Origin: Candidatus Uabimicrobium amorphum
GTDB taxonomy: Bacteria > Planctomycetota > Uabimicrobiia > Uabimicrobiales > Uabimicrobiaceae
Reading direction: 5' to 3'
Assembly (NCBI RefSeq): GCF_009002475.1
Contig: NZ_AP019860.1
Coordinates: forward strand, 7,769,547-7,809,546
DNA: 40,000 bases
Shown here: in pieces, positions 1 to 36,595 of the stretch
Layout: each line of letters begins with the position of its first letter
Numbering within the stretch: position 1 is the stretch's first letter
The notes under the pieces: model-generated
Seen by the model: the letters and a program-made list of their open reading frames with translations, nothing else
What the model was told of the DNA's origin: nothing
Database searches by the model: none
Translations under genes and position numbers: made by a program

Positions 1-747
1 CAGCTCAGGCTTGGTAACTCCAATATCAAGTAACAGTTTTAAAGATGCAGATATTTCAAAATTTAATTCTTCTTGACCTATTTCGGCAAGGCGTCGATGG
101 TAGTATCCGTGTCCTCCTACCTCAACACCATCCTTATGCAAGCTAGAAATATCTTCTCGACTGAGATATAAATTCTGTGGTAAATCTATAGGAATCTGAC
201 TATCAAGTACTTGTTTCAAGTTTTGTAGTAGGATAATTTGCTCTTCTGCTGTCGCCATGTGCAATTTTTCTTTAAATTCTCCTTTAATCCACCATTGAAT
301 GTCTGTGTCTATTGCTGGTACTTGCATATCGACGTCAAGGAACTTTAAATGGATAGGGGAACGATTATTAGCGTAATGCAATATCATGTAGTAATGGTCT
401 ACGTATACAGGAAAATCAGCTTCTGCCGTATGTCCTGCTATTGGAAATATACAAATGGGAATTTGGAGATTTTTAGATAATGGCCAAACGACATCTTTAA
501 TCTCTTTGTAGCCATCATCAAATGTTAGCACGCAATATTTACCCTCCTCCTTTTGTTTTGATAGCTCAACAGCTTTTGTTAGCGAAGTAAAGGTATAACC
601 TTCTTTTATCAACCAATTTAGCTGTCTTTCAAAAACTTGAGGTTCAACGGCTGTCCCCCTCGCGAAATAGCATTTATTGTGTTTTGTTTTTTCACAGATT
701 CTGTGATACATTAAGATGGCTATATTTGGCACTTTTTCTCCATTCAC
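1..747 (-). CDS. Polysaccharide deacetylase (NodB/CE4-like), C-terminus cut by window edge
   Basis: Absent from the ORF track because the frame runs off the window start. My own reverse-strand translation gives VNGEKVPNIAILMYHRICEKTKHNKCYFARGTAVEPQVFERQLNWLIKEGYTFTSL...KYCVLTFDDGYKEIKDVVWPL...HGYYHRRL. The ILMYHRI and TFDDGY motifs are typical of NodB-homology deacetylases. Start is ambiguous: GTG 745-747 or ATG 709-711. It lies 8 nt downstream of the stop of the preceding ORF. Confidence 0.6.
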   Translation of the reverse strand, partial: MNGEKVPNIAILMYHRICEKTKHNKCYFARGTAVEPQVFERQLNWLIKEGYTFTSLTKAVELSKQKEEGKYCVLTFDDGYKEIKDVVWPLSKNLQIPICIFPIAGHTAEADFPVYVDHYYMILHYANNRSPIHLKFLDVDMQVPAIDTDIQWWIKGEFKEKLHMATAEEQIILLQNLKQVLDSQIPIDLPQNLYLSREDISSLHKDGVEVGGHGYYHRRLAEIGQEELNFEISASLKLLLDIGVTKPEL

Positions 748-755
748 AAATAAGA

Positions 756-1796
756 TTATGGACTTTCTATAATTGAAAAAATTTTACTATGTCTCTCTTC
801 TGATAGGTCAGCGAAGCCTATAAATTCATCATTTACAATGTCCCAACAGATAATACCCGTTTTTGTTTTACTCCATGGAGATACTTGCCAATCATATTGT
901 GGTTTTCGCCGTATTTCAGTTATGCCTACAAATAAATAGTTATCTTGGATCATAAGACCACGGCACCAACCATGATATGAAGTTTTTTCAAAAATATTTG
1001 TAAAGTACATCACATCATCTGTGACCGCGTTATTTTCTATTCTATAAGCTAAAACTCTCCCATCAACGCAGGTAATCCAGAATTTATCATTATAAATAAA
1101 TCCATCATGTGGTGGGGCAGGAGTGGTTATCATTTTGCTGAAGTCCAATATATTATAAATGCCACAAGCCGATAAACTAGTTACAAGAACTTGAGTTGGC
1201 AATATAGAGACATGGTTAATGTGAACGAAATCTCTAACTGGCTTTTGGCAAAAATTCTCCTTGTCACTTTGGTAGTAGTCTTTAGTAGGAGGAGCATCTA
1301 CTATGGGAGTATCTTGTTTTGTCCATCCTCTTTTTAAGAGTTTTGGCCAATCTTGGCGGGCAGGTGTTATGCCATGTAGCCTTTCTTTATTAAGCCATGA
1401 TGGTTGAAAGCAGTGGTTTCCTACAAAGTTTCCAGGTAAATCAAAGATATCAATACTCTCAACGCCTGTATTTACAACAAATATTTTTCCTTGGTTTACA
1501 GTTATATGATGCAAGTCATTCATACATGGTTGATGTAAAACTCCAGAGAGATCCCAGTGAGGTGGAGAAAAGCGAAATACTGCGCAAAAACCACATACTA
1601 GTAAGTCTGATTGTCCAGGTGTGCCGACCCAGGTGGCACCAGTAAAACCTTTACGAGAGACTAACAAATCTTCAGGTGGTGTAAATCGTATAATTTTTTC
1701 CACGTTGCTTCCGAAAACATCCACCTCATATACAAAACCTTCTCCTGACTCATCAAAGTATCCACCAGTCACCCATATTCTAGATTCTTTGCCCAT
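756..1796 (-). CDS. Conserved hypothetical protein, beta-propeller-like; function unknown
   Basis: 346-aa ORF packed between operon neighbours. Repeated strand-turn segments (KIFVVNTGVESIDIFD, DKFWITCVDGRVLAYRI, NYLFVGITE) suggest a propeller or lactonase-like fold. I suspect a DUF4915/TIGR03032-type family but cannot verify it. Confidence 0.5.
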   Translation of the reverse strand: MGKESRIWVTGGYFDESGEGFVYEVDVFGSNVEKIIRFTPPEDLLVSRKGFTGATWVGTPGQSDLLVCGFCAVFRFSPPHWDLSGVLHQPCMNDLHHITVNQGKIFVVNTGVESIDIFDLPGNFVGNHCFQPSWLNKERLHGITPARQDWPKLLKRGWTKQDTPIVDAPPTKDYYQSDKENFCQKPVRDFVHINHVSILPTQVLVTSLSACGIYNILDFSKMITTPAPPHDGFIYNDKFWITCVDGRVLAYRIENNAVTDDVMYFTNIFEKTSYHGWCRGLMIQDNYLFVGITEIRRKPQYDWQVSPWSKTKTGIICWDIVNDEFIGFADLSEERHSKIFSIIESP

Positions 1797-1832
1797 TTTG
1801 TATTCCTGAAAATTCTATCACTTGGTAGATGT

Positions 1833-2525
1833 TTAAGAAAATTTACTGACCTGGTTTTCTTCAAAAAGAACTCGAACATCGAATTGAAAATGTTTTTTTA
1901 TTATGTCAGAGGCTTTTTCTCTATCGATATTTGTAATGTCTTGTGGCTTATCACATTCACAAAAAAAGAGTAACGTATCATCACGCAAAAAAAGAAATTT
2001 ATCATCTACTACCTGCGAAAATCGCAATCCTGTACTAAAAGGATACTCAACACTTCCATCAAATCTGTTTTTGATATCATCCATTATCTGTTGTTCGTTT
2101 TTTGATTCAAACGGAATTTCTGTTGATAGACGCTCCTCTCCTCTTCTAGTTTGGTAAACTTTCAAAGAGTATGGTTTAATTTCTGATCTATAGGTAATTC
2201 CGTAGCAAGTGTATCTTACTTCATAATGCTTAGGAAACAACTTAATCGATGGCCAACCATTGCCTACATCAGCAAAATAAGTTTGCCCTTCAATGTTAAC
2301 TGCCACTAAGCGATGAATATTTTGGTTGTTTATCAAAGAAGAATGCAGTTTTGCCTCAATCCCTAAACTTTTTAATGTGTTAAGAAAGCTTAATGTTTTA
2401 TCTGAGCAAGTACCACCATAGATTAGTGTTTTTGGTGTTGTTTTTGATAATAGATATAGGTTATGGAAAGGCTCTGTTTTAAATTTGTTTAACATTAAGC
2501 TTTCCACGTAATTTATACTTGTCAT
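1833..2525 (-). CDS. Arylamine N-acetyltransferase (NAT)-like acyl/acetyl-transferase
   Basis: Cys-His-Asp triad contexts match the NAT fold: IYGGTC(40)SD, H(71)RLVAV, YFAD(86)VGNGWP. The His-to-Asp spacing is 15 residues, as in NATs. At 230 aa it is shorter than typical NATs. It overlaps the upstream gene's stop by 4 nt. Confidence 0.55.
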   Translation of the reverse strand: MTSINYVESLMLNKFKTEPFHNLYLLSKTTPKTLIYGGTCSDKTLSFLNTLKSLGIEAKLHSSLINNQNIHRLVAVNIEGQTYFADVGNGWPSIKLFPKHYEVRYTCYGITYRSEIKPYSLKVYQTRRGEERLSTEIPFESKNEQQIMDDIKNRFDGSVEYPFSTGLRFSQVVDDKFLFLRDDTLLFFCECDKPQDITNIDREKASDIIKKHFQFDVRVLFEENQVSKFS

Positions 2526-3970
2526 TTGTGTGTCCTACCACGAGATGCTATTGCATTGTTGAAAACAGGGTAAGAGTGGAAATAAATTGCATCTGAACCT
2601 ATATCAAAAAACCTTTGCCAGATTTCTTTAAGTACCTGCTTCTCTGTATCACTCTCTTTGGTCAGATGGCAAACTGTCAGAGCTCGTATTCCACTGCCAA
2701 CATCAAATGATATTTTTTTGCGACGAGTGATCCTCTTTGGCAGATCAGATTCAAAAGTTTGTCTCAGTATAAACTTGTTTTCCATCGTTCCATTTTCTAT
2801 ATGAAAAAAATCATCATATTTTAAGCTAGAAGCGAAATCATGTATTTTTTTGTCTAAGAATGGGCATCTATTTTCTATAGAATGTGCCATACAACATTGA
2901 TCTATACGACGTAACTCAGTAAAGCACATATCATTAATTAATTGCTGCCGAATATTGATCCAATCATCATCCTTTTTGAACATATGATACCCACAGAAAA
3001 GTTCATCAGCTCCCTCTCCAGACAAAACAACTTTTAGTTGGTCTTTATGGGCAGATTCAGCTAATAAATACGTACAAATACCATTACTTATGATAGATGG
3101 GTTATAGCTTTCGGTGGTGTAGACCACTTTGCAAATCAATTCTCTTAGCGTGTTCTTATGGGGAGGATCGATATATTTGACCTGAATGCCTAAATATTTT
3201 TGTAGCTCTACAATATAACTATAATCAATGGAGTTTTCTTTTGCTAATGCATAGTATATTACATCTTTCCGATGCTTTGAAACTATAGAAGCTACAATCG
3301 AACTATCAAGCCCACCACTTAGAAAGACTCCAAAAGGATCTGCTGGCAAACGTTTTATTACCGCATTTTGTACAAGGTTTTTTAGAGAAGTGGCTTTGTC
3401 TAATACATTGGTTTTATGGTTTACTTCCTGATAAACTGCCCCTGTAGAAAGGTCTATCCGACTTACTCCTTTAGGTAACATCTCAAAGCTATCCACGTTT
3501 GGTATAGCTTTCAATTCACTGGTCACGAAAATTTCAGTGCCTGATCTACCTAAAAATAAAGGTTTTTTACCGATGTAGTCTCGTATACAAAATAGTTTGT
3601 GGTCTTTTCGATTGTATATCAAGCCGGAGTAAAAGCCATCTAAAACAGAAATGATTTCTACTCCAAGTTTATCGAACAAAGGTAAAATAACATTTGTATC
3701 GCATGCTCCTTTAATATCTATTTCATATTCCTCTCTTAAAGACATATGGTTGTATATTTCGCCATTAACAACAGCTATATGATCTTTGTAGTAATATGGC
3801 TGACTCCCTAGAGTACTTTTATCATTGATAGCCAGGCGATTAAAAGCTATAGCCAAATTTTCTTGATGAAAAAATTTTGTGTCGTCAGGTCCGCGGTGCT
3901 TAATCTTATGTGTGCTTTCTGATAAACGAGAGTCTGCATGTGGACCGAAGTATAAAACAATTCCGCACAT
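2522..3970 (-). CDS. Asparagine synthetase B-like glutamine-dependent amidotransferase
   Basis: MCGIV N-terminal nucleophile Cys of class II amidotransferases, HRGPDD, PP-loop FLSGGLDSS, SGEGADELFCGY. AAGGAG lies 8 nt upstream of the ATG at 3968-3970, so I trim 12 codons from the track ORF (2522..4006). Confidence 0.85.
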   Translation of the reverse strand: MCGIVLYFGPHADSRLSESTHKIKHRGPDDTKFFHQENLAIAFNRLAINDKSTLGSQPYYYKDHIAVVNGEIYNHMSLREEYEIDIKGACDTNVILPLFDKLGVEIISVLDGFYSGLIYNRKDHKLFCIRDYIGKKPLFLGRSGTEIFVTSELKAIPNVDSFEMLPKGVSRIDLSTGAVYQEVNHKTNVLDKATSLKNLVQNAVIKRLPADPFGVFLSGGLDSSIVASIVSKHRKDVIYYALAKENSIDYSYIVELQKYLGIQVKYIDPPHKNTLRELICKVVYTTESYNPSIISNGICTYLLAESAHKDQLKVVLSGEGADELFCGYHMFKKDDDWINIRQQLINDMCFTELRRIDQCCMAHSIENRCPFLDKKIHDFASSLKYDDFFHIENGTMENKFILRQTFESDLPKRITRRKKISFDVGSGIRALTVCHLTKESDTEKQVLKEIWQRFFDIGSDAIYFHSYPVFNNAIASRGRTHK

Positions 3971-3974
3971 GGAA

Positions 3975-4391
3975 TTAACTCCTTTCCACAAGGTATGCAT
4001 TAGCACACCATTCTAAAAACATTGCGAGCGCATATATACAAGGTTCCGTATATTGGGAATTAATCCATTTGTTAAACTCTCTGTGATCATGTACACCACA
4101 ATTACCATACTCTTTTATAGTCCATAGATGTGCCATGATTACTTTTGGAATGGTCGACTTTCTTTCGATAATTTTTAATTGGGCATTCAACTTATAATGT
4201 AAAATCTCGTCTTTATTTAACAGTCCTTCATAAATACAAATTTCTCCGCACAAACGTTCAAGGAGTTTTCGGCAAAGAGTAAGGCTATAGTCTGGTTCAG
4301 AATCTTTATGGATTAAAATTTTATAAACATCGTTTTGTAACCACAGAGGTAAAGAATCAAGAGTTACACTTTTGAAAATGTTGTAAATCAT
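3975..4391 (-). CDS. DUF4145-like small helical protein
   Basis: 138-aa ORF. LCRKLLERLCGEI and WTIKEYGNCGVHD resemble the R-x-x-LE and GN-x-x-x-H signatures of DUF4145. ATGA start/stop overlap with the upstream gene at 4388-4391. Confidence 0.45.
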   Translation of the reverse strand: MIYNIFKSVTLDSLPLWLQNDVYKILIHKDSEPDYSLTLCRKLLERLCGEICIYEGLLNKDEILHYKLNAQLKIIERKSTIPKVIMAHLWTIKEYGNCGVHDHREFNKWINSQYTEPCIYALAMFLEWCANAYLVERS

Positions 4392-5590
4392 ATCTTTTCT
4401 CCTTGCTGAAGATTACTACGAACTTCCATCAGAATTTCGCCCAGCATATTCTTGCCTAACCCGTCACCGCCATCTCCCCAATAACTATCATTCTCTGTGT
4501 GTTCGATGATATCTGCTTTACCTGTTGCGATTAGTTTGGCTTTTAGATCTGGATGCTGAGTAAATTTAGCAAAAATGGCTTCGCGCATAACATCATTTTT
4601 TACATTTTCCCAGTCATCTCTTTTCGGATTGTTTTTCTTGCGACCCATTTTTGATGCTTTTACTGGGGATGGAGCCATACGCAACTCCTCTTCGTAAGGA
4701 GTTCCTGCATATTTTTGTGCTTGGTAGTAATGCTCAACTGTCATCCATATTTTGTTTTTGAGATAAACAGGGTGTTTAGAAAAATTAGAGAAGCATCCAT
4801 AAGGCTGTTCTATCTGATAGAATAGTATTCTGCTGGAATGTCTTTCCTTTGGATAAAAATTTTTGCGGATATTGAAACTATTAGCGCGGCTTATACCATC
4901 CAAAAAAAATGTGTTTATGCCCTTTTCTTCAGCAATATTAATCGCGGAACTCAGACTTAGTATAAAATCCTTAGAAGTAAACCCCCTAAGATCATTTTTT
5001 GGCTTGTATCTGGGGTTGTATTTACACAATAAATTCCAAAATTTGCACAGTACGTCGAAGTCAGCATTCAAATTATGTGCAAATTCAAAAAAATCATTTA
5101 GGAAAGTTATTTGCATAGCAGAAGCAATGTTATATACATACATACCTAGCTCTGCTGTTTCAAAAGAAGTTTTCAAAAAGAAATGTTTCAAATCTTTACT
5201 CAAAAGGTTCGTAACTTCTTTTATAGAGTTGCATTCACCCCCAATGAGATAGGTACGGTGTTGATTCTCTGTCTCACAGTATCTAAACAATACAACAATT
5301 TGTTTTTTGTATTTTTCTGCAAAGTAGCGTGCAGTTCCTGGTGGAAGTATAGTCTGAATGATGTTAATTCTTGCTTGTGACGTTTTTATTATGGATTCAA
5401 TAGTAGAAGTGTTTATTTCTCCACCTTCCATTTCGCCAGCAGAAACACATATAAAACAAAAATGTGTTTTGAGCGCCGCATCCATGTTTTGAGAGTATTT
5501 AACGATATTTGAATCGTAAATAATTGCAGAAGGAAACATTTCATGAATAGCTTTTCCTCTGCCATCATATCCAATAATTGAGATACTCAT
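4388..5590 (-). CDS. Two-domain protein: degenerate UDP-sugar dehydrogenase-like N-terminus fused to a NADAR (YbiA/COG3236/DUF1768) N-glycosidase domain
   Basis: aa ~254-400 are NADAR: FYQIEQPYGCFSNFSKHPV, WMTVEHYYQAQKY, DSYWGDGGDGLGKNMLGEILMEVR. aa 1-240 resemble UDP-glucose/GDP-mannose dehydrogenase: ETAELGMYVYNIASAMQITFLNDFFEFAHNLNADFDVL matches the central-domain helix. The glycine loop is degenerate (IIGYDGRGKA) and there is no Cys where the catalytic Cys is expected (RGFTSKD). AGGAGG SD precedes the ATG at 5590. Confidence 0.75.
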   Translation of the reverse strand: MSISIIGYDGRGKAIHEMFPSAIIYDSNIVKYSQNMDAALKTHFCFICVSAGEMEGGEINTSTIESIIKTSQARINIIQTILPPGTARYFAEKYKKQIVVLFRYCETENQHRTYLIGGECNSIKEVTNLLSKDLKHFFLKTSFETAELGMYVYNIASAMQITFLNDFFEFAHNLNADFDVLCKFWNLLCKYNPRYKPKNDLRGFTSKDFILSLSSAINIAEEKGINTFFLDGISRANSFNIRKNFYPKERHSSRILFYQIEQPYGCFSNFSKHPVYLKNKIWMTVEHYYQAQKYAGTPYEEELRMAPSPVKASKMGRKKNNPKRDDWENVKNDVMREAIFAKFTQHPDLKAKLIATGKADIIEHTENDSYWGDGGDGLGKNMLGEILMEVRSNLQQGEKI

Positions 5591-5647
5591 TTTGGCCTCC
5601 TGATTGTGTTGCTAAAATGCTAGCGTATTAGAAAATACGCCAGGCCT

Positions 5648-8446
5648 TTAATCTAAGCAAAAAAAGTGGTTAAGTTTGTCTCTTTTGGTGTACAGATAAT
5701 CGCGATTTTCTTTACGGATTTTAGGTTGAGTATTTACAGGCTCAACTACCAGACCCGCTTCTCTAAGACAAGATATCTTTCGAGGGTTATTGGTTATGAG
5801 TCTGACACTCTTGATGTTTAAATCCAAAAGAATATCTACAACTTTCTGATAGTCTCTAACATCCTGTTTTAGCTGAAGTTTTTCAAAGGCTTCAACTGTG
5901 TCCATTTTTTGCTTTTGCATTAAAGATATTGCTTTGATTTTGTTAGAAAGTCCCTGTCCTCTCCCCTCCTGATGGAGGTGAAAAATAAGTCCTTCCTGTT
6001 GAGAAGCAATGCGTTGCATTGCCTCTTCAAGTTGATCAGCGCAATCACAATCATTTGATTTAAATAGTTCAGAGGCCATGCAAGAGGAATGTATTCGTAC
6101 TAGAGGTATACTACTAAACTGATGTACATCTCCATAACTAACAAGGCGAATCTCTTCATCTCCGGTGTCATACATACGAAATTCTCCATAGTTAGTAGGG
6201 AGATAACACCAGTTGTTTAAATATAGGTCTCTTTTAGGAGTATAGTTTTCTATTTGAGGTTTTAATGAATCTATAAATTTTTTTATTTCATCTTTTGATA
6301 GGGTTTTTACTCTTGATTCTATTGCTTCAAACGTAGTTTCGCTGTACCACTGCGATAACTGTTCTACAAACTCTTCAAGCTCACCTGTTTGGTCGTAGTT
6401 CTTTATATACTTTTGTATACCGCGAGCTCGAAAATAGTTTATCTTTAAAGATAATAGGCGCTTTTTTTGGTATTCCTGCACTTTATCACAGATAACATTC
6501 TTTGTTTCTTCATGAAATTCAAAGTTGTGTACCGCATGTCCTTTTAAAATCTCTTTTAAGGCGGCGTAAAGAGAAGATCCTTGTATTTCCCCAACAACTT
6601 TTTGAATATTAAGCTGTGGCTTTGCTTCAATCTTTCTTTTATGGATAACAGGAAAATGAACATGCTTAATTGTGAGGCCATGGTAGTAACGATTGATAAC
6701 TGCCCAAATCATATCTGAGCGTCTTACTTCTTTTCCAGATACTTCGGCAACTGCATTCGGTGCTTGTAAAGCCAAGGGGTTCAAAATGAAAGTATTACCG
6801 CCTCTATTCACAGACTCTTTTGCTTCGTTTATTGGATCAGTAGGTAAGTCTACCAATATCGGCCTTGTAAGCGGTTCGCCAGCTAAAAGATAAGGAGCAC
6901 GTTCTAGTAAGCGCGTTCTTGCTTCTTTGACCGTTTCTCCCTCGTAGATAGGCGTTAACCAGTACGGTGTTTCCAGATGTCCTGTATGTAGTCGCGATAA
7001 ATCGTAGTAATAATCTGGATATACCAGGCGAGTTTGTCTATTTTCATTACTACGATCAGGTAAAACATCATCAGGTTTTAAATTATCTAGCCATTGTAAA
7101 TTATGGATTAAATCTACAAGTTGTATTCGAGATCCGTTCAATGGAGGATTAGGAGATGCATATTCAAAAGAGCCTAACAAAACATCGACTTTCCATCTGC
7201 GAAAACTTGGCAGCCAGGGAAGATATAGTCTTGCGCGGAAATCAAGCCTCATATCATCATCAAGTATCCAACCAATAGAATTTTGTTTTTTGTCCATAAA
7301 GCGATGAATATATCGCTGTAAAATAGTCCTTGCTTTTCCAATACCTAGCAATGATTTTTCTCTTTGAAAACCTTTGCCAAATATTCCACGTGAATTATCT
7401 CTGATTTGTTGACTAAGGCTGATAAAATGGCAATTTATCCCATCCATTTTTGTAAGTTCCAGTAAGTTTTGTCCATCTCCACCATTTTCCATCACAAGTA
7501 CATCAAGGTCTAACAAGAAAGATTCTTCTCTCAAACAACGCAAATCCTCTAGTAAAGGCTTTAACTGTTGTGCATTGTTACTTATAACAGCAACAATTAA
7601 ATGGAATGGCTCTGGATCTCTGGGAAAATGTATCTTGGCAGTAGGGATTGATGCTATCTGTTTTGGAACAAAACCAAAAAGAGTTTTACTCCTTTCCAGA
7701 AACATTTGCTTTTGCTCATTACTCATTTGGCTTTGATATTTTTGCCAAAATGCCTGGAGCCCTTCTAGCTTTGAAGGACTTCCATATGAAGAAAGGCGTA
7801 ATCTATCAGAACAACAATAGTGATGGACGGTATGTCTCTCCGTTGATACTGTTTTCACACCCATTTGTGCAAGGCGGATATATAGATCTCTATCAGTACA
7901 ACTTGCTAAATTTTCATCGAAGAGCCCTGCTTCAAGGATTGCAGACAAGCGTACAAATGTATTTGATCCTTGAATTCCAGGGTTTGTGACTAATAGTTCA
8001 TCAATATTTAAAACATTGGGAATGCTATCATTGTAGGTTTTACTACTATATCGAGTAATCCCTCCTATTACTACATCGTAGTTTGGAGTGTGTTTTAGAC
8101 ATGTTTCTAAATGGCATGGATGCCATTCATCATCATCATCGAGGATAGCAATAAATGTATTTTCGGGATTTTTAAAATTATCTGTTACAAATACCAGACC
8201 AGTATTCCACGCTCCCGAAGCGCCTTTAGCTCTTTTGTTTTTAAGAAAAATAAATTTTACGCCTGGTGGTATTCTGTCTGTTAGAATCTCTTCCAGTTTG
8301 GAATTATTCTTTGAATCATCAATGACAACGATATAATCAGGTAATCGGTTTTGATTTAGTACTGATGGTAACGAACGATCAAGCAATAAGTCATCCCGAT
8401 CACAAGTTGCAATTAAAACAACAACTTGGGTTGAAGTTGAATTCAT
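5648..8446 (-). CDS. Tri-domain protein: family-2 glycosyltransferase + second DxD (GT-A-like) region + C-terminal GTP cyclohydrolase II (RibA-like) domain
   Basis: aa 8-230 are GT2: VVVLIATCDRDD, SVLNQ, IVVIDDS, AILDDDDEW. aa ~285-470 form a second DxD region: LIVAVISNN, GWILDDDMRLD. aa ~744-932 (nt ~5651-6217) are GCH II: LPTNYGEFRMY, VRIHSSCMASELFKSNDCDCADQL (Zn Cys triad), HQEGRGQGLSNKIKA, DTVEAF, VRLITNNPRK. Confidence 0.8.
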   Translation of the reverse strand: MNSTSTQVVVLIATCDRDDLLLDRSLPSVLNQNRLPDYIVVIDDSKNNSKLEEILTDRIPPGVKFIFLKNKRAKGASGAWNTGLVFVTDNFKNPENTFIAILDDDDEWHPCHLETCLKHTPNYDVVIGGITRYSSKTYNDSIPNVLNIDELLVTNPGIQGSNTFVRLSAILEAGLFDENLASCTDRDLYIRLAQMGVKTVSTERHTVHHYCCSDRLRLSSYGSPSKLEGLQAFWQKYQSQMSNEQKQMFLERSKTLFGFVPKQIASIPTAKIHFPRDPEPFHLIVAVISNNAQQLKPLLEDLRCLREESFLLDLDVLVMENGGDGQNLLELTKMDGINCHFISLSQQIRDNSRGIFGKGFQREKSLLGIGKARTILQRYIHRFMDKKQNSIGWILDDDMRLDFRARLYLPWLPSFRRWKVDVLLGSFEYASPNPPLNGSRIQLVDLIHNLQWLDNLKPDDVLPDRSNENRQTRLVYPDYYYDLSRLHTGHLETPYWLTPIYEGETVKEARTRLLERAPYLLAGEPLTRPILVDLPTDPINEAKESVNRGGNTFILNPLALQAPNAVAEVSGKEVRRSDMIWAVINRYYHGLTIKHVHFPVIHKRKIEAKPQLNIQKVVGEIQGSSLYAALKEILKGHAVHNFEFHEETKNVICDKVQEYQKKRLLSLKINYFRARGIQKYIKNYDQTGELEEFVEQLSQWYSETTFEAIESRVKTLSKDEIKKFIDSLKPQIENYTPKRDLYLNNWCYLPTNYGEFRMYDTGDEEIRLVSYGDVHQFSSIPLVRIHSSCMASELFKSNDCDCADQLEEAMQRIASQQEGLIFHLHQEGRGQGLSNKIKAISLMQKQKMDTVEAFEKLQLKQDVRDYQKVVDILLDLNIKSVRLITNNPRKISCLREAGLVVEPVNTQPKIRKENRDYLYTKRDKLNHFFCLD

Positions 8447-8531
8447 GTGCCCCTCCAGAAATCAATTTTGAACCATGGTAACCCGAATTGCTAACTGGAT
8501 TAGCAACTTAACACGGACCAAGTTTCAGGGG
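8447..8531 (-). promoter_or_regulatory. Structured 5' leader, copy A (riboswitch-like, class not recognised), immediately upstream of the GT2/GCH-II gene
   Basis: RNA sense is the minus strand. Perfect 7-bp hairpin UUGCUAA-UCCAG-UUAGCAA (8488-8506). Loop UCCAG is complementary to CUGGA (8454-8458), which overlaps the SD GGAGG (8452-8456). Upstream CCCCUGAAA (8523-8531) can pair with UUUC..GGGG around the SD. It shares the flanks UUGGUCCGUG and UUCGG with copy B. Confidence 0.45.
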
Positions 8532-8560
8532 TTATATTTTATGGAATTGTAAAGTGAGGA

Positions 8561-8584
8561 TTAGTTTTGCGATTTGCTTTTCAT
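8561..8584 (-). CDS. Possible 7-codon leader mini-ORF (MKSKSQN*) behind copy B
   Basis: ATG at 8582-8584 lies 7 nt after GGAGG. The sequence catgggtgaccctccaga mirrors the real gene start catgtgcccctccaga. It may be only a relic of the duplication. Confidence 0.2.
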   Translation of the reverse strand: MKSKSQN

Positions 8585-8680
8585 GGGTGACCCTCCAGAT
8601 TAAATATGGGTTTATGATGAGCAAATGGAGAACCGAACAGCTAATAATCTGGATTAGCTGCTTATCACGGACCAATTGCT
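8585..8680 (-). promoter_or_regulatory. Structured 5' leader, copy B (tandem duplicate of copy A)
   Basis: Perfect 8-bp hairpin CAGCUAAU-CCAGAUU-AUUAGCUG (8638-8660). Relative to copy A the stem has compensatory changes (UUGC/GCAA versus CAGC/GCUG). The loop segment UCCAGAU is complementary to AUCUGGA (8594-8600), which overlaps a second SD GGAGG (8592-8596). Conserved flanks: UUGGUCCGUG (8666-8675) and UUCGG. Confidence 0.4.
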
Positions 8681-8775
8681 ATGAATTTTTTAGTATTATT
8701 TTATGATGAATAAATCAGAAAGAAATTGCAAGAAGTATTTTTAAAGATCTTAAATTTATTTAAAATAACCATTAT

Positions 8776-9222
8776 ATGTCTTTGAGTACAAAAAATAGCT
8801 TTGGAGAATTAAAAATGGAAGAAAAAAATCTACAAGTTACAAGCAACGTAGGACTTTACTATGTTTGCTACAAGTTGTCATTACAAGGTTGGAATGCTAT
8901 GCCTACAGCAAGAAATGCTAAAGGAGTCGATATCATTGCTTATAACTCTGATTGCTCAAAAATGATAAGCATACAGGTTAAAACCCTTAGCAAACGTAAT
9001 GCTGTCCCCTTGGGAAGAGATCTTGGCAAAGTGATGGGAAATTATTGGATTATTGTAAATGAAATAGATAAAGAACCAAAGACTTTTGTCCTAATTCCTG
9101 AAGAAGTTAAAAAATTAGCAGAAAAAAGGGAGAAAGAGGGGCAAGTATCATACTGGTTACAGGTGAAATCGTACTCTAATGAAGAGTATTTCGAAAAATG
9201 GGATAGAATAGGAGAGATTTAG
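8776..9222 (+). CDS. Small PD-(D/E)XK-like hypothetical protein
   Basis: GVDIIAY...ISIQVKT matches a D...(E/Q)xK nuclease-fold core pattern. The likelier start is ATG 8815, with GGAG at 8803-8806 eight nt upstream. It is the only plus-strand gene between two minus-strand units. Confidence 0.4.
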   Translation: MSLSTKNSFGELKMEEKNLQVTSNVGLYYVCYKLSLQGWNAMPTARNAKGVDIIAYNSDCSKMISIQVKTLSKRNAVPLGRDLGKVMGNYWIIVNEIDKEPKTFVLIPEEVKKLAEKREKEGQVSYWLQVKSYSNEEYFEKWDRIGEI

Positions 9223-9704
9223 TAAACGAACTCTTCCAAGTTTGTCCCAGATTTTGATAACTAAAATTTTCATCCTAAATGTCTCCATGATTTAGCTACT
9301 GTAACCTTTTAAAGGTTTGGCAATTTTGAGTTTTGTCGTAAATAACCATACTCATGAGATATCTCAAAAACAACTGTTAATCCTTTCGATATTAGATACA
9401 GGAAAAAAAATTTAAACATTTTTTTGCAATGCAACCAACTCTTTTTTTGCAACTAATTTTTTTGTACATAAAATTTGTATTGTTTTGGACACCTAAGATA
9501 TTTTTATCACACCAATATGGTATTGTCATTCTTTTTGGTATACTTCTATATCTGAGTTATTTTGGAAAAGTACTTCACATTCTCGCCACTTCTATTGCAA
9601 TAGAGCAATACATCTTTTCTCATAAAAGGTTCACAAAAAGATGCTAATAAATATCTCGACCAAGAACAATACTATTTGAAATCTAAATAAAAAGTTTTGA
9701 TTTC

Positions 9705-10478
9705 TTATCCACTCTCCACCATTGCATATGCTGAATGATTGTGTATGCTTTCAAAATTTTCAGATTCGACCCGATACCAAAGTATACGGGGGTCTTGATT
9801 TAGTAAGACGGCTGCATTTCGGACTAAATCTTCAACAAAAACAGGTTTATCATACGCTTTCTCAGTAACATATTTTTCATCTTCGCGTTTTAGTAATGTG
9901 TAAAGTGGAGAACTTGCTGAACTTTCAGCAATCTCTATTAGTTCCTCAATCCAAACAAAATCGGAATACTTTACTTGAATTGTAACTATCGCCCTTTGGT
10001 TATGTGCGCCATATTTGCTAATTTCTTTTGAGCAAGGGCATAGTGTTGTTACTGGAGTCTTTACTTGCAAGATATTGTTATATTGCTGATCTTGTTTACT
10101 ATAGCTTGCGATAAACGAACAATTGTAATCTAAGAGGCTCTTACGTTTAGAAACAGGAGCGATTTTGCTGATAAAGTAAGCAAAATCTATTTCAACATGC
10201 GCACAATCAGAATTGAGTTGGTCTGTCATTTTTCCTAAAAGTTGGTTTATATTTCTTAAGGTAACCTCTCCACGATATTCATTTAGTATTTCAACAAAGC
10301 GAGACATATGAGTACCTTTGAAATGATGAGGGAGATCTACATACATCGATATATTGGCAATGGTAGATTGGTACTCATTATTTTTGTCTAGCACTTCAAT
10401 AGGATAACGAAGATCTTTTACGCCTACTTTTTTAATAGGAATTTTTCGATTATCATGGCTATTTTGAACATCTCTCAT
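9705..10478 (-). CDS. folE2: GTP cyclohydrolase IB (FolE2 type)
   Basis: DNRKIPIKKVGVKDLRYPI, DLPHHFKGTHMSRF, TTLCPCSKEISKYGAHNQR are diagnostic FolE2/MptA-family motifs. AAGGAG SD precedes the ATG. Confidence 0.85.
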   Translation of the reverse strand: MRDVQNSHDNRKIPIKKVGVKDLRYPIEVLDKNNEYQSTIANISMYVDLPHHFKGTHMSRFVEILNEYRGEVTLRNINQLLGKMTDQLNSDCAHVEIDFAYFISKIAPVSKRKSLLDYNCSFIASYSKQDQQYNNILQVKTPVTTLCPCSKEISKYGAHNQRAIVTIQVKYSDFVWIEELIEIAESSASSPLYTLLKREDEKYVTEKAYDKPVFVEDLVRNAAVLLNQDPRILWYRVESENFESIHNHSAYAMVESG

Positions 10479-10632
10479 TGGTTTCTCCTTAGGTTTTTAA
10501 GTTTTTTATTTACAAAAATTATTGTCAATGGTTTAGCTATGATATTTACTTTGTTTATTAATTGACAAAAGTATTCTAAATAAATTTTCAAATAACTGCA
10601 TTATAAATATATAAACTTATTAAAAATAACTG

Positions 10633-10638
10633 TATAAT
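10633..10638 (+). promoter_or_regulatory. Candidate -10 box (TATAAT) for the dpdB/dpdA operon
   Basis: Perfect TATAAT 65 nt upstream of the dpdB ATG, in the 225-bp divergent AT-rich region. There is no convincing -35. In DNA this AT-rich, chance matches are likely. Confidence 0.2.
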
Positions 10639-10703
10639 ATAATTATATTTGTTTTTCGTAATTATTCCTAAATTAAATTCTTGTATAGATTGTAGAAAAC
10701 TAT

Positions 10704-11816
10704 ATGTCTAAAACACTCAAAGTGCGTACTCTTTGTACAAAACAAGATAAAACAACAATTTATTCTTTTTTTCTGCCAGGAAAACTCATACTTGAGATTG
10801 CTGATATTTCAAGAATAAAGAAAGATCAAAATGAAAAATTGTTAGGATACCAAAGAAATGAAGTTAACAATCATGTAAAAGAAATAGTTGAGTATTTAGA
10901 CTCAAAAAATATTATTTTTCCTAACTCCATCATTTTAGCTATATCTAGTGCTGTTTCTTTCAAGCAAAGTCGAGGACCTCAAGTTGGGGGCAATTATTGT
11001 ACTGCTGGAATTCTTGAAATTCCTAAGACAATTTCTGGCAAAAAACCTGCATGGATTGTAGATGGTCAACAGAGAAGTCTTGCACTTATGAAGTGCAAAA
11101 ATAAAAATTTAGTTGTTCCCATCACAGCATTCATAAGCGATGACTTCGAAGTTCATCGAACACAATTTTTACTAGTTAACAAAGTTAAACCCTTACCAAA
11201 AGGTTTGATCAATGAACTTCTTCCAGAAGTGAATACTCTTTTACCACCAAGTTTAGCAAAAAATAAAATTCCATCGGCAATATGTAATCTTCTCAATAAA
11301 GATCCAGAATCTCCATTCCGAGGTCTCATTATCAGGCAAACAACAGATAGAAAAATTGAAAAAGCAGCAGTCGTTACAGATAACTCCATTATTCAAATGG
11401 TAAGAAGTAGTTTGAACAATCCTCATGGATGTTTGTACCAATATAAAAACGTAGCCAGTGGCGAAATTGATTTTGAAAGTGTTAGGTTAACTCTAAATCT
11501 CTACTGGGGTGTTGTGAAAGATTTATTTCCTAATGCTTGGGGAAAACCAGCGACTCAAAGTCGTTTGATGCATGGTGTTGGGATAAAGTCTATGAGCGTT
11601 TTAATGGATAGAGTTATGGTAAGTCATACAATAAATGAAAAAAATTTACAGCAAACAATAAAACAGAAAATGTCCATCATACCACCTGTATGTGCCTGGA
11701 CAGAGGGAAAGTGGGAGCATTTAGGAGGCATTCAGTGGAATCATCTTCAAAATACATCAAGTCACATCAAATTACTTTCAAATATGCTTATTAGAGTTTA
11801 TATGGGGGTTAACTAA
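10704..11816 (+). CDS. dpdB: DGQHR-domain (DndB/ParB-like) protein, DpdB-like
   Basis: LLGYQRNEV, PAWIVDGQQRSLAL, QFLLVNKVKPLPKGLINELLP, RLMHGVGIKSM. The TAA stop is followed immediately by the GTG start of the DpdA gene. Confidence 0.75.
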   Translation: MSKTLKVRTLCTKQDKTTIYSFFLPGKLILEIADISRIKKDQNEKLLGYQRNEVNNHVKEIVEYLDSKNIIFPNSIILAISSAVSFKQSRGPQVGGNYCTAGILEIPKTISGKKPAWIVDGQQRSLALMKCKNKNLVVPITAFISDDFEVHRTQFLLVNKVKPLPKGLINELLPEVNTLLPPSLAKNKIPSAICNLLNKDPESPFRGLIIRQTTDRKIEKAAVVTDNSIIQMVRSSLNNPHGCLYQYKNVASGEIDFESVRLTLNLYWGVVKDLFPNAWGKPATQSRLMHGVGIKSMSVLMDRVMVSHTINEKNLQQTIKQKMSIIPPVCAWTEGKWEHLGGIQWNHLQNTSSHIKLLSNMLIRVYMGVN

Positions 11817-14111
11817 GTGAAATTTTTTTTTGCTGAAAATATAGATTATATTGATCCCAACTTTAATTTTGATACCGAAACTTGGTCGAAAAATAGAATT
11901 CCTCAAATTGATGATGTATATCCACATGAAGTATTTGAGACATGTCCGTATGATGGACTCTTGGTTTCTCGTAATATTGTAGGGGATTTATTTCATAAAG
12001 GAAAGTTTTCAACTAACCAAAAGTATCGCCTTTTTAGAGAAGGCGTTCATAAATATTTTAGGCTTCCAAAAACAAATTTTCCTGTCATCGGTGATTGTGG
12101 TTCGTTTTCATATATAAACATGGATTTACCTCCTTTTACTAATAATGAAATTATTGAGTACTATCAGATGTGTAATTTTACTCATGGAGTTTCTATAGAT
12201 CATGTTATCGCAAAAATGCAAACTGTTTGGGACAATGAGAAAAGGCGACCATCTGAAATTACTAAAAGAGCAGAGTTCTCTTCTCGAAGTGCTATAGAAT
12301 TTTTAAAAATTTGCCAAGCGAAAAAAGTTGACTTTACACCAATTGGAGCAGTGCAAAGTTGGAGTCCCAAATCTGCTGGTAAGTACGCAAAAACTTTAGT
12401 CGATGCCGGATATAAGTACATAGGGTTAGGAGGAATGGCTTATCAACCAACAGACTTTCTTTATGATGCTATTTCTGAAGTTCGTTCAAAGATCCCAAGT
12501 AATGTAAAATTGCACATTTTTGGTTTTAATAGGTTAGAGAAAATTGAAAAATTTACTGGTTTGGGTATTGATTCTTTTGATAGTACTTCCCCGATACTAA
12601 AAGCATTCAAAGATGAAGATGATAACTACTTCTTTGGTAAATCCAAAAGATATCGAGCTATTAGAATCCCCCAAGTTTACGAAAATATGGACATAAAGAG
12701 AAAAGTTCAGAGAGGTGTTATAAATCAAGACGTTGCATCTCAATTGGAACAAGATGCCTTGATGAAAATAAGAAATTATGCAAAAGAAAAGACTGGTTTA
12801 GAAGAATCATTAGAAGCAATAGTTACTTATGAAAACTATGTTTTTGGAAAAAGTTGCCGTCAAAAATATCGTAATGTACTTTATGAAAGTCCTTGGAAAA
12901 ATTGTACTTGCCCAATATGTAAGCAGTTAGGGATAGAAGTTATAATTTACAGAGGAACAAATAGAAATAAACGTAGAGGATTTCATAACCTTTTCCATTT
13001 CTACCAAGAACTTCAAAGGGTAAGAGAAATGAAACAACAAATTGTGGCACCGTGCATAAAAACAGAGCAGAGTCCAGGCAAGTATATATATTCATTTGTA
13101 GTGAATGGTAAAGACATCTCAAAATTTGCCTCTGTTTCGAGAGTTAAAAGAGGAGATAATGGAGATCTGTTAGGCTATCAGCGACCTGAGGTGATGCAGC
13201 ATATCCAAGAAATAAAGGAGTACATAGAAAGTGACAATTCAATACTTCCAAACTCTTTAGTTATTGCTTTTCAGAAGAACATTGATTTTTGTACTTGCGA
13301 AAAAATAAATGTTTACAGTGAACTGGGTAAGTTGACCATAAGCTATAGTGATAAAAATAAACCTGGATGGATTGTAGATGGTCAGCAAAGAGCAGCAGCT
13401 TTAAGAGTAGCAAATCAACCGAATTTTCCTATTTCGGTTGTTGCTTTCGTATCAAACGGAGAAAATGATGAAAGACAACAATTTGTTCTTGTAAATAATA
13501 CAAAACCTCTTCCAAAAAGTTTAATATATGAGTTACTACCAAGTTTTGAAGAACATGTACCAAGTAAACTAAAGACTAGGCGTGAAGCTTATATTATTCT
13601 TGAAAAACTTAATGTTGATAGAAATTCACCTTTTTATATGCGTATAAAAACAATGACTTATAGAGGAATAGAAACTGCGAATATAAAAGACATGTCTATC
13701 TTAAAAATGCTTGAAAATAGCCTTACCAACGGTATCCTTTTTAAGTATAGACATAATCCACAAAAAGTATCTGACATACTTCTAAATTATTGGAATGCTG
13801 TAAAAACATACTATTCAGATATATGGCATCTCCCTCCGAGAAGAAATCGGTTAACACATGGCGTTGGTATTGTAAGTATGGGATATCTCATGGATACTAT
13901 CTCATGGCGACTTATGAAGCGTGGAAAAGTTCCTTTATCTGAGAGATATTTAGATGAATTAAAAATTCTTGGTAAAGATGTTCCATGGAATAATGGTACT
14001 TGGAAGTTTAGTAAATCAATGATTTTACCATGGAATGAAATTCAAAATACAATAAGGCATATAGACATGGTCACCAATTTTTTATTAAGAAGGTACACTC
14101 ATAAAAATTAA
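11817..14111 (+). CDS. dpdA: DpdA-like DNA (7-deazaguanine) transglycosylase fused to a second DGQHR (DpdB-like) domain
   Basis: aa 1-400 are TGT-like: PVIGDCGSFSY, GVSIDH, GLGGMA, LHIFGFN, DSFDSTSP, and the zinc motif NCTCPIC...RRGFHN. aa ~415-764 are DGQHR: LLGYQRPEV, PGWIVDGQQRAAAL, QFVLVNNTKPLPKSLIYELLP, RLTHGVGIVSM. Confidence 0.8.
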   Translation: MKFFFAENIDYIDPNFNFDTETWSKNRIPQIDDVYPHEVFETCPYDGLLVSRNIVGDLFHKGKFSTNQKYRLFREGVHKYFRLPKTNFPVIGDCGSFSYINMDLPPFTNNEIIEYYQMCNFTHGVSIDHVIAKMQTVWDNEKRRPSEITKRAEFSSRSAIEFLKICQAKKVDFTPIGAVQSWSPKSAGKYAKTLVDAGYKYIGLGGMAYQPTDFLYDAISEVRSKIPSNVKLHIFGFNRLEKIEKFTGLGIDSFDSTSPILKAFKDEDDNYFFGKSKRYRAIRIPQVYENMDIKRKVQRGVINQDVASQLEQDALMKIRNYAKEKTGLEESLEAIVTYENYVFGKSCRQKYRNVLYESPWKNCTCPICKQLGIEVIIYRGTNRNKRRGFHNLFHFYQELQRVREMKQQIVAPCIKTEQSPGKYIYSFVVNGKDISKFASVSRVKRGDNGDLLGYQRPEVMQHIQEIKEYIESDNSILPNSLVIAFQKNIDFCTCEKINVYSELGKLTISYSDKNKPGWIVDGQQRAAALRVANQPNFPISVVAFVSNGENDERQQFVLVNNTKPLPKSLIYELLPSFEEHVPSKLKTRREAYIILEKLNVDRNSPFYMRIKTMTYRGIETANIKDMSILKMLENSLTNGILFKYRHNPQKVSDILLNYWNAVKTYYSDIWHLPPRRNRLTHGVGIVSMGYLMDTISWRLMKRGKVPLSERYLDELKILGKDVPWNNGTWKFSKSMILPWNEIQNTIRHIDMVTNFLLRRYTHKN

Positions 14112-32643: not shown

Positions 32644-33351
32644 TTATTTTATCGATATCTTAAAAGGGTTATAGTTTACTTTAGAGTCGTATTGGTCAAC
32701 GCCTTCTTTTCTTTTTAGAAAGTTTACTGCCATGTATGTAAAAGGCGTTACGATAATTTCATATAAACACTTAAATATCCAGGCCGAAATCATAGCACTT
32801 ATTAAGATGTTTTTAGGCAGAATACCAATGTATGCAATGCTTATGAAACAGATTGTATCAACACCTTCTCCAAACAATGTCGAGATTACAGTTCTGAGCC
32901 ATAAGTGTCTACCATCACTCCATACTTTCATTTTTGACATAATAGTACTATTAACTATTTCTCCTAACCAATAACCAACCAAAGATCCAAGCACTATCCG
33001 AGGTATAAATCCATGGATTATGGCAAATTGATCTTGGTAAGACCAATTATGAGCTGGCGGTAAAATAACTGCTATAGTAAGAAATGAAACCATAAACACA
33101 TTAGACAGCAAACCTAACCAAATTAATCTTCTAGTTCGTTTATAACCATATACTTCAGTGAGTACATCTCCAATAACATAGGAGATCGGAAAAATTAAAA
33201 TGCCAGCGCTAAAAATAGCACTTCCAAGACTAAATAATTTTACAGCAGCAATATTTGAAACTAAGAGGGTAACTATAAAAGCTATACCAACTATGTCCAA
33301 ATGCTTTGGATGCCATTCGTCTTCGGAAGTTATTTTTTTTACCTCGTTCAT
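32644..33351 (-). CDS. yhhQ: YhhQ/DUF165 (VUT family) 7-deazaguanine (queuosine precursor) transporter
   Basis: Polytopic membrane protein with VSNIAAVKLF, IFPISYVIGDVLTEVYGYKRTRRLIWLG, RIVLGSLVGYWLGEIVNS, STLFGEGVDTICFISIAY. AGGAG SD. Confidence 0.85.
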   Translation of the reverse strand: MNEVKKITSEDEWHPKHLDIVGIAFIVTLLVSNIAAVKLFSLGSAIFSAGILIFPISYVIGDVLTEVYGYKRTRRLIWLGLLSNVFMVSFLTIAVILPPAHNWSYQDQFAIIHGFIPRIVLGSLVGYWLGEIVNSTIMSKMKVWSDGRHLWLRTVISTLFGEGVDTICFISIAYIGILPKNILISAMISAWIFKCLYEIIVTPFTYMAVNFLKRKEGVDQYDSKVNYNPFKISIK

Positions 33352-34371: not shown

Positions 34372-34547
34372 TTTTACCAACCAGTTTTAAAATTAAAAAA
34401 TAAACATTCTATTCTATCCCGAATGTAACTAAAAAGCAAATTGCACTGTTAGTCAGTTTAAAATTTTCAACAGTAGTGGAACCAAATATAGCGTTTTGTC
34501 AAGACAAAGTAGTTGTTAATCTATAGCTTTTGTGCAACAGTAGTAAT

Positions 34548-36592: not shown

Positions 36593-36595
36593 AAT

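Follow-up and report, generated by a model that had tools for sequence, protein, structure and literature searches.

What does a NADAR domain do when it is fused to the remains of a sugar dehydrogenase, encoded immediately downstream of a GTP cyclohydrolase II (GCH II), and located close to an island of dpd guanine-modification genes? This question is raised by a 40,000-nucleotide stretch of DNA (the window; source contig JAZFBD010000044.1, GCA_040907725.1), one gene of which encodes a degenerate UDP-glucose dehydrogenase (UGDH)-like domain followed by a NADAR domain, an architecture written here as pseudo-UGDH::NADAR. NADAR proteins of the YbiA type are common, and their physiological substrates are disputed, with both the control of riboflavin overflow and the removal of ADP-ribose from guanine having been put forward. 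On balance, we favour the view that the fusion protein releases the base in a soluble biosynthetic cassette that is complete in itself and independent of the dpd island, and that its dead N-terminal domain is scaffold-like. The gene adds a new architecture to a known enzyme family and belongs to a widespread cassette of which we found no published description in the literature.

By several measures, the C-terminus of the protein is assigned to the YbiA subfamily of the NADAR superfamily (PF08719/TIGR02464/COG3236). PF08719 spans residues 257-394 (E 2.9e-39; 135.4 bits against a Pfam cutoff of 35.1), and TIGR02464, the model named 'riboflavin biosynthesis intermediates N-glycosidase', is passed with 139.9 bits (cutoff 73.7). 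Among solved structures, Escherichia coli YbiA (PDB 2b3w; E 1.4e-46) comes nearest, with 74 of 141 residues identical (52%). These matches bear out an earlier interpretation made from the DNA alone (the sequence-only reading), which had called the C-terminal NADAR signature clear. The YbiA subfamily is marked by a Glu in the last beta-strand (PMC11125620), where DarT1-linked NADARs carry Asp and phage NADARs carry His (PMC11125620, PMC11543638). This Glu is kept as E363 (IIEHTEND) and is invariant in the alignment of homologues. Judged by criteria taken from solved NADAR structures (PMC11125620, PMC11543638), the positions that contact ribose and phosphate are likewise kept: E286, W327, D368 and W371 are invariant, and K293 nearly so. 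The predicted activity is that of an N-glycosidase acting on GCH II or RibD products, for which the genetic evidence is fusion to, or adjacency with, GCH II in all cassettes that have both parts. Database matches to the NADAR domain are dominated by tandem NADAR-NADAR or NADAR-Macro fusions of unrelated architecture (P0002, P0004-P0008, P0010, P0015 and others).

All NADARs tested so far, E. coli YbiA included, hydrolyse ADP-ribosyl-guanine in vitro (PMC11125620), and the protein might accordingly be an antitoxin that strips ADP-ribose from DNA guanine, as for DarT1/YarT-type toxins, with a Rossmann-like N-terminal domain that binds NAD or ADP-ribose. The gene does lie within a defence-rich island, and shows a weak, generic PADLOC match to the candidate system PDC-M42C (46 bits). 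However, no ADP-ribosyltransferase (ART) gene or domain occurs among the neighbours in any version of the cassette, and the subfamily residue is the Glu of YbiA, not the Asp of DarT1-associated NADARs. Further, the NCBIfam anti-phage NADAR model NF053876 reaches 85 bits against a cutoff of 240, and the glycine-rich loop of the N-terminal domain is not conserved among homologues, making dinucleotide binding unlikely. A role in defence is thus extremely improbable.

The company that the gene keeps suggests a role in biosynthesis. Loci were found by searching GTDB species genomes with the arylamine N-acetyltransferase (NAT)-like protein encoded in the window, and the window proteins were then mapped onto them. 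The cassette so defined is present in 29 genome loci and four independent metagenome cassettes, spanning the Gammaproteobacteria, Campylobacterota, Bacteroidota, Myxococcota and a euryarchaeote metagenome-assembled genome (MAG). Its hosts include Photobacterium, Psychrobacter, Vibrio furnissii, Shewanella, Oceanobacter, Paraglaciecola, Psychromonas and Methylomonas, together with Arcobacteraceae, a Myxococcales MAG and Prolixibacteraceae. The core consists of a dual GT-A glycosyltransferase (GT), GCH II, NADAR, an AsnB-like glutamine amidotransferase (present in 31 loci) and the NAT-like protein (33 loci), to which a DUF4915 protein, a CE4 deacetylase or an SDR epimerase is sometimes added. 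Three gene orders occur. The commonest, type A, has a GT of 780-1140 amino acids (aa), a GCH II::NADAR fusion (~352 aa), and the AsnB-like and NAT-like proteins. Type B runs GCH II, pseudo-UGDH::NADAR, AsnB-like, NAT-like and GT, and type C, found in the window and in loci L004 and L006, runs GT::GCH II, pseudo-UGDH::NADAR and the remaining genes.

Throughout these arrangements NADAR lies immediately downstream of GCH II. The two form a single polypeptide in 21 of the 29 genome loci, and a triple GT::GCHII::NADAR fusion also exists (P0286, 1155 aa), so the coupling of GCH II to NADAR is strongly supported. It had been proposed from the sequence that the pair would generate a free diaminopyrimidine base from GTP; the release of a free aminopyrimidine base by the two together is supported, but the product is perhaps a 5-formamido compound instead. 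The GT, AsnB-like and NAT-like genes around NADAR suggest that the freed base serves as an intermediate of a pathway and is not waste. The pseudo-UGDH domain occupies the place that GCH II takes in the commoner GCH II::NADAR fusion. Its full-length fusion homologues are P0001, P0003, P0009 and P0121 (~27-50% identity) and a protein of locus L014; the first four all lie within the same cassette, two of them flanked by housekeeping genes on long contigs of 167 kb and 38 kb. Scanning genome contigs with the N-terminal domain alignment gave no match, and a metagenome scan with the corresponding profile recovered only the already known 167-kb contig, which indicates that the pseudo-UGDH::NADAR form is rare.

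Does the cassette then serve the dpd genes beside it? It starts at position 8446, and upstream of it a 1.3-kb gap with an opposite-strand open reading frame (ORF) is followed by FolE2 (GTP cyclohydrolase IB, 9705-10478), DpdB (starting at 10704), a DpdA::DpdB fusion, DpdK-E and a second DpdA; YhhQ, a queuosine-salvage protein, and relaxase and coupling-protein genes lie further along. The sequence-only reading had thought the predicted activities of the GCH II and NADAR pair notable beside a guanine-replacement DNA modification system. On a dpd-linked reading, the cassette would produce, or take away, a base derived from guanine or a sugar linked to guanine, as an input to DpdA base exchange in DNA or as something removed from it. 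Physical adjacency in this genome is in its favour, as is the unusual make-up of the island, with two DpdA paralogues and no queC/D/E, dpdC or dpdD. Yet no homologue of DpdA/B/E/F/H, FolE2, YhhQ or the queuosine-salvage protein lies within 10 kb of the cassette in the 29 genome loci or the two long metagenome contigs, a divergent ORF stands between cassette and FolE2 in the window itself, and viral contigs scanned with the NAT-like alignment yielded no relative. Further, the relaxase, the coupling protein and a HORMA gene beyond the window suggest that the island is a mosaic of unrelated cargo. No cassette protein matches the NCBIfam Dpd models, no preQ1 riboswitch was found in the window or in seven other loci, and megablast found no plasmid counterpart of window positions 1-12000.

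The cassette thus appears to stand apart from the dpd genes that it adjoins, and participation in DpdA base exchange is highly improbable. As the sequence-only reading had itself contemplated, the GCH II-NADAR pair proves to be general and unrelated to dpd, but its contexts are not the riboflavin operons envisaged there. This result removes a tempting, unsupported link between the fusion gene and deazaguanine DNA modification.

The island has several features of its own. The ORF between cassette and FolE2 (8776-9222, plus strand; 148 aa, called as 135 aa by NCBI) is oriented against both neighbours and weakly matches the Mrr_cat_2 restriction-endonuclease family (E 0.0055). The dpd genes (10704-14111 and 30408-32621) encode a stand-alone DpdB, the DpdA::DpdB fusion (764 aa) and the second DpdA, which carries an N-terminal DUF6884 (737 aa); DpdC, DpdD and QueC/D/E were not detected in the window. 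FolE2 is found without queD/E/C and together with a YhhQ-type preQ0/preQ1 transporter and a queuosine-salvage (PF10343) protein (32644-33351 and 33361-34380), suggesting that the island depends on salvaged deazaguanine precursors. Flanking the dpd genes are a relaxase-like protein of the Replic_Relax type and an ORF that weakly resembles TrwB/AAA_10 coupling proteins (35015-39049). Past the left end of the window (L040, 19183-21203) are a pentapeptide-repeat gene, a weak bacterial HORMA match and a Bro-N gene. The region as a whole looks like a mobile or defence island.

The GCH II partner provides a further clue to the chemistry of the cassette. As the sequence-only reading had claimed, a GCH II fusion does adjoin the pseudo-UGDH::NADAR gene, and its other part is a GT2 glycosyltransferase. 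Residue alignment to E. coli RibA (2bz0) shows that the GCH II domain retains the zinc ligands and Arg128, and that Tyr105 is replaced by Ile. The same position is Val or Ile in 28 of 28 cassette GCH IIs, next to a one-residue insertion, with C54, C65, C67 and R128 kept; three canonical GCH IIs in the PDB all have Tyr. Besides lacking Tyr105, the window domain falls short of canonical RibA in the TIGR00505 equivalog model (159 bits against 205.85), and it passes the looser subfamily model NF001591 (163.8 bits against 148). The formamide intermediate of GCH II is AFRPP (PMC9478397). The conserved replacement of Tyr105 by Val or Ile defines a recognisable GCH II subfamily that present annotation would mislabel as RibA. 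A natural Streptomyces GCH II with Met in place of this Tyr reportedly stops at the 5-formamido nucleotide, and from this precedent, together with the absence of Tyr105, we infer a formamide-type product: cassette GCH IIs may make the 5-formamido rather than the 2,5-diamino form. Tyr105 is also said to be tied to ring opening itself. A search of the literature for published support for a Tyr105 rule found nothing relevant.

These properties bear on one role described for such a pair, riboflavin damage control (Frelin et al. 2015), in which NADAR destroys excess reactive GCH II products and both enzymes belong to vitamin B2 metabolism. The fusion protein passes TIGR02464, which is named for that role, and RibA-COG3236 fusions are documented inside rib operons of Vibrio (PMC5312566). 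However, the cassette fusions have GCH II at the N-terminus and NADAR at the C-terminus, the reverse of the order reported for the Vibrio rib-operon fusion. No ribD/E/H/B-type family recurs beside the cassette, and no flavin mononucleotide (FMN) riboswitch was found where we scanned for one, in the window and seven other loci. Further, the GCH II lies under the TIGR00505 cutoff and is without Tyr105 in every copy, the pair stays together with AsnB-like, NAT-like and GT genes, and the taxonomic distribution is patchy. Damage control in riboflavin metabolism is consequently a very unlikely function for the cassette pair.

The N-terminal half of the fusion protein scores under the cutoffs of the dehydrogenase family models (PF00984, 20.7 bits against 25.4; TIGR03026, 34.4 against 189.8), and a Pfam scan of the protein found no PF03721 or PF03720 match. 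Its ancestry emerges from structure and from distant relatives. An AlphaFold model of the protein, built from four sequences, is mostly confident in this half, with blocks at predicted local distance difference test scores (pLDDT) of 85-96, and the best Foldseek matches are UDP-glucose dehydrogenases (3gg2, E 4.8e-10; 3vtf, 2y0c and 7kws, up to 1e-8). Searching 1.84 billion representatives with a profile of five N-terminal domains returned 2508 relatives. The nearest of these outside the fusions are short UGDH-like proteins of ~250-275 aa that pass PF03721 and PF00984 and are encoded next to GT2 and other glycosyltransferase genes. In alignment, they retain GYGHVG, VPTP, PEF/PEY, AExxKYxxN and GFGGKCLPKD. 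The fusion protein has GYDGRG and RGFTSKD at the corresponding sites, with Asp at the Cys position, and has lost GxGxxG, PTP, PEF, the catalytic Lys and the catalytic Cys. This Cys is absent in all five aligned fusion proteins, only one of which has an intact GxGxxG, and NADAR stands in place of the UDP-binding C-terminal domain. The sequence-only reading had likened the N-terminal ~240 aa to UDP-glucose/GDP-mannose dehydrogenases and noted the loss of a clean GxGxxG, the catalytic Cys (RGFTSKD) and the UDP-binding domain; on all of these points it was correct.

Judging from these motifs, the N-terminal domain is catalytically dead and descends from a sugar dehydrogenase from which the UDP-binding domain had already gone. 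Most likely, it now acts as a scaffold, or a dimerisation or docking module, that keeps NADAR beside GCH II. The Prolixibacteraceae (Bacteroidota) version is even more degenerate and barely recognisable (hhalign E 2e-4 over 223 columns), as would fit a relaxed, structure-only constraint. The ancestry of the domain also hints at uronic-acid chemistry within the pathway. The short UGDH-like family (P0122-P0267; L041, 6001-6819) has 483 matches at E<=1e-10, all without the UDP-binding domain, and its aligned members keep both GxGxxG and the catalytic Cys. Fusions to GT2, a methyltransferase or an intein occur within the family, and one member is encoded in a glycosyltransferase cluster.

The operon of the window is transcribed from the minus strand in the order GT2::GCH II, pseudo-UGDH::NADAR, DUF4145, AsnB-like, NAT-like, DUF4915-like and CE4 deacetylase (Table 1), with genes that overlap or lie less than 60 nt apart. 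Gene calls agree with the NCBI annotation of the 441-kb source contig, including the length of the AsnB-like protein. The fusion gene is therefore one part of a 5-7-gene unit that includes the AsnB-like, NAT-like, DUF4915 and CE4 genes, a context absent from the sequence-only reading.

Table 1. Genes and protein domains of the operon in the window (positions are those of the window; residues are those of the encoded protein)
Feature	Position	Strand	Size or residues	Evidence and remarks
Dual GT-A glycosyltransferase::GCH II, upstream gene	5648..8446	-	932 aa	Pfam GT2 + GTP_cyclohydro2
First GT-A (GT2) domain	7667..8428	-	residues 7-260	PF00535 E 2e-16; invariant DDDD, D103-D106
Second GT-A domain and helical region	6242..7606	-	residues 281-735	invariant LDDDM; no Pfam family
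GCH II domain	5660..6208	-	residues 747-929	PF00925 E 3.4e-43
Pseudo-UGDH::NADAR fusion (target gene)	4388..5590	-	400 aa	ORF, domain matches and five full-length homologues of the same architecture
N-terminal domain, UGDH fold (Rossmann-like + central helical), catalytically degenerate	4856..5590	-	residues 1-245	
C-terminal NADAR domain, YbiA subfamily, predicted N-glycosidase	4403..4834	-	residues 253-396	
DUF4145 protein	3975..4391	-	138 aa	PF13643 E 1.3e-6; overlaps the stop codon of the target gene
AsnB-like glutamine amidotransferase	2522..3970	-	482 aa from MCGIV start	Cys2 nucleophile; TIGR01536 295 bits; GATase_6/7 + Asn_synthase
NAT-like protein (arylamine N-acetyltransferase fold)	1833..2525	-	230 aa	PF00797 31.4 bits against GA cutoff 22.8
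DUF4915/TIGR03032-like accessory protein	756..1796	-	346 aa	weak PF16261 and TIGR03032 matches
CE4 polysaccharide-deacetylase family, last operon gene	1..732	-	3' end off window	PF01522 E 2.6e-10

The NAT-like protein has an invariant Cys40-His71-Asp86 triad set in the invariant segments GGTCSDK, HR and YFADVGNGWPS, and the triad segments align to the NAT structure 2bsz. Homologues of the DUF4915-like protein adjoin the cassette in L004, L006, L026, L033 and L035. The CE4 gene (308 aa at full length in the source contig) shares 60% identity with its positional counterpart in L004. DUF4145 was found only in the window and in L004, there too at the same position (55% identity). Besides DUF4915, SDR epimerase/dehydratase and CE4 deacetylase, no additional neighbour family recurs across genera. 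Two apparent neighbour clusters, of 10 loci and of four loci, were rejected as antisense ORFs inside cassette genes; another four-locus cluster consists of the SDR epimerase/dehydratase genes.

A model of the glycosyltransferase built with AlphaFold 2 from database homologues (pLDDT 88.5; predicted template modelling score 0.89) shows two GT-A domains and a helical tail, and sequence searches with the second domain found no Pfam or PDB family. Foldseek matches it best to two-domain glycosaminoglycan (GAG; glucuronic acid/N-acetylhexosamine) polymerases, K4CP (2z86, E 1.7e-13) and PmHS2 (8vh8). The family comprises at least 508 clusters at E<=1e-10 and, where named at all, is called only 'glycosyltransferase family 2' or similar. 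Most type-A GTs carry an insert of ~370 aa between the GT-A domains (L011-L020, L023-L025, L030-L032; in L017 at about 5000-6100). Neither this insert nor the short N-terminal extensions of L029 and L035 matched a Pfam or PDB family by sequence. The idea that the insert substitutes for the pseudo-UGDH domain was rejected, as the N-terminal domain profile gives no match to it.

These structural matches raise the alternative of glycan decoration, in which the dual GT-A enzyme polymerises or extends a GAG-like chain of uronic acid and N-acetylhexosamine, the AsnB-like, CE4 and NAT-like enzymes tailor its sugars, and GCH II and NADAR provide an aminopyrimidine for attachment to this glycan or some other macromolecule of the cytoplasm. 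The best matches are indeed a chondroitin polymerase and a heparosan synthase, CE4 deacetylase and SDR epimerase genes accompany some copies, and the N-terminal domain of the fusion protein is descended from a UDP-sugar dehydrogenase. AsnB-type amidation of uronic acids in surface glycans is, moreover, known chemistry. However, membrane segments and signal peptides are missing from every version of the cassette, as are flippases, polymer exporters and lipid-carrier priming transferases; in no cassette protein does a 19-residue hydrophobic window exceed 1.6. Among the loci examined, the cassette does not lie inside O-antigen or capsule loci, and the tight fusion of GT to GCH II and NADAR points to the pyrimidine as acceptor. 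We therefore think glycan decoration unlikely.

Returning to a soluble biosynthetic cassette, we can sketch a possible pathway. GCH II would open the imidazole ring of GTP and remove pyrophosphate, probably stopping at, or favouring, the 5-formamido nucleotide. NADAR would then cleave the N-glycosidic bond, giving ribose 5-phosphate and free 2,6-diamino-5-(formyl)amino-pyrimidin-4-one, with the pseudo-UGDH domain docking or dimerising the glycosidase next to its substrate source. The free arylamine base would be handed to the remaining enzymes: the two-domain GT-A enzyme could add one or two sugars, the Cys-His-Asp NAT-like enzyme could acylate or trans-acylate an aromatic amine, and the glutamine-dependent AsnB-like enzyme could amidate a carboxylate, most simply that of a uronic acid. 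Some versions would add accessory sugar enzymes (CE4 deacetylase, SDR epimerase/dehydratase, DUF4915), and the end product would be a glycosylated aminopyrimidine. We speculate, tentatively and with the odds slightly against us, that a Tyr105-less GCH II and NADAR divert GTP to a free formamido- or triaminopyrimidine that is then re-glycosylated, acylated and amidated, yielding a new class of aminopyrimidine (or 8-substituted purine-like) glycosides.

Several points weigh against this interpretation. The substrates and product of the pathway are argued from enzyme families, and any identity given to the metabolite is guesswork; the cassette contains no transporter. Because the GT resembles polymerases most closely in structure, the product could be a polysaccharide. 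The effect of replacing Tyr105 is extrapolated from the precedent reported by Spoonamore & Bandarian 2008, and, on the role reportedly assigned to Tyr105 by Ren et al. 2005, cassette GCH IIs might be poor cyclohydrolases. The putative scaffold role of the N-terminal domain is argued from motif loss. As for independence from the dpd island, the cassette does lie 1.3 kb from FolE2 and the dpd genes here, and the two closest relatives, L004 and L006, are on short contigs whose flanks are not visible.

If the proposed pathway is correct, it would give a YbiA-type NADAR its first physiological role in biosynthesis rather than damage control, and the cassette would be a prokaryotic counterpart of the plant vicine route. 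Across many genera, gene order and repeated independent fusions lock NADAR to glycosyl-, acyl- and amidotransferases as well as to a distinctive GCH II. The cassette is thus a concrete case in which the release of a 'waste' base would be a committed biosynthetic step. It also points to a GTP-derived metabolite in cultivable bacteria, including Vibrio furnissii, Photobacterium, Psychrobacter and Shewanella.

Individual copies of the cassette show further variation. On the Psychromonas sp. KJ10-10 chromosome (L033, 6791-10004), the GCH II, NADAR and AsnB-like genes are each split over two frames, and this copy appears to be decaying into pseudogenes. About 770 nt downstream of the Vibrio furnissii cassette, a four-gene version in strain CIP 102972 (L017, 4106-10687), a gene (L017, 11460-12725) encodes a 421-aa protein with three RidA/L-PSP domains, a neighbour that other genera do not conserve. 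Because RidA enzymes quench reactive enamines and imines, it could be relevant to a reactive aminopyrimidine. The uncultured euryarchaeote MAG (L036) carries a complete type-A cassette, with about 39-56% identity to the window proteins, and a GT homologue (P0394) is annotated as coming from a Candidatus Poseidoniaceae (Marine Group II) archaeon. Together, these archaeal occurrences point to inter-domain transfer in seawater communities.

How does the cassette compare with known systems? The closest counterpart of the fusion protein is E. coli YbiA/COG3236 (TIGR02464; 2b3w), with which it shares the NADAR domain at 52% identity, the YbiA-type Glu, scores above family cutoffs and a tie to GCH II. 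The expected reaction would likewise be hydrolysis of the ribosylamino bond in the ring-opened GTP product, and known COG3236 relatives include RibA-COG3236 and RibD-COG3236 fusions. Unlike these, the fusion gene lies outside any rib operon and has no FMN riboswitch, its partner GCH II lacks Tyr105, and its NADAR is fused to a dead UGDH-like domain instead of, or besides, GCH II. It also differs from the DarT1-NADAR (DarTG1) and anti-phage NADAR systems, having no adjacent ART toxin and no BC4488-type Asp, and failing the anti-phage model.

The other half of the protein has the fold of UDP-glucose/GDP-mannose dehydrogenases and is collinear with short UGDH-like proteins that also lack the UDP-binding domain and are encoded beside GT2 genes. 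It differs from the dehydrogenases in being without their catalytic motifs, under every family cutoff, and fused to NADAR. For the partner enzyme, the nearest parallel is the SCO6655-type GCH II of Streptomyces coelicolor, which reportedly makes a formamidopyrimidine nucleotide and has Met in place of the active-site Tyr. In both, an aliphatic or hydrophobic residue replaces this Tyr and the zinc site is kept, but the cassette enzymes have Val or Ile rather than Met.

At the level of pathways, the cytosylglucuronic-acid routes to blasticidin S, mildiomycin and gougerotin follow a similar logic: an N-glycosidase frees a base, a GT re-attaches it to a hexuronic acid from a UDP-sugar, and the sugar is tailored. 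Free cytosine and UDP-glucuronate are the building blocks of the cytosylglucuronic acid core (PMC5572114). The AsnB-like amidotransferase of the cassette would fit the formation of a uronamide. The gougerotin pathway, for example, has an amidation step. The differences lie in the base, a GTP-derived aminopyrimidine instead of cytosine, in the glycosidase family, which is unrelated, and in the GTs.

Another parallel, which also starts from GTP, is the route proposed for vicine and convicine in faba bean, which proceeds through the GCH II VC1, COG3236-type hydrolysis, deamination and glucosylation (bioRxiv 10.1101/2020.02.26.966523). Both would lead from GTP through GCH II and removal of ribose phosphate to glycosylation of an aminopyrimidine, and the cassette has candidates for the first, second and last of these steps. 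The plant route is dispersed and its later enzymes were not identified in that paper, whereas the cassette is a prokaryotic operon, and there is no sequence relationship between the two beyond GCH II and NADAR. With a dual GT-A enzyme, an amidotransferase and an acyltransferase at its disposal, the cassette would be expected to make a product more elaborate than vicine.

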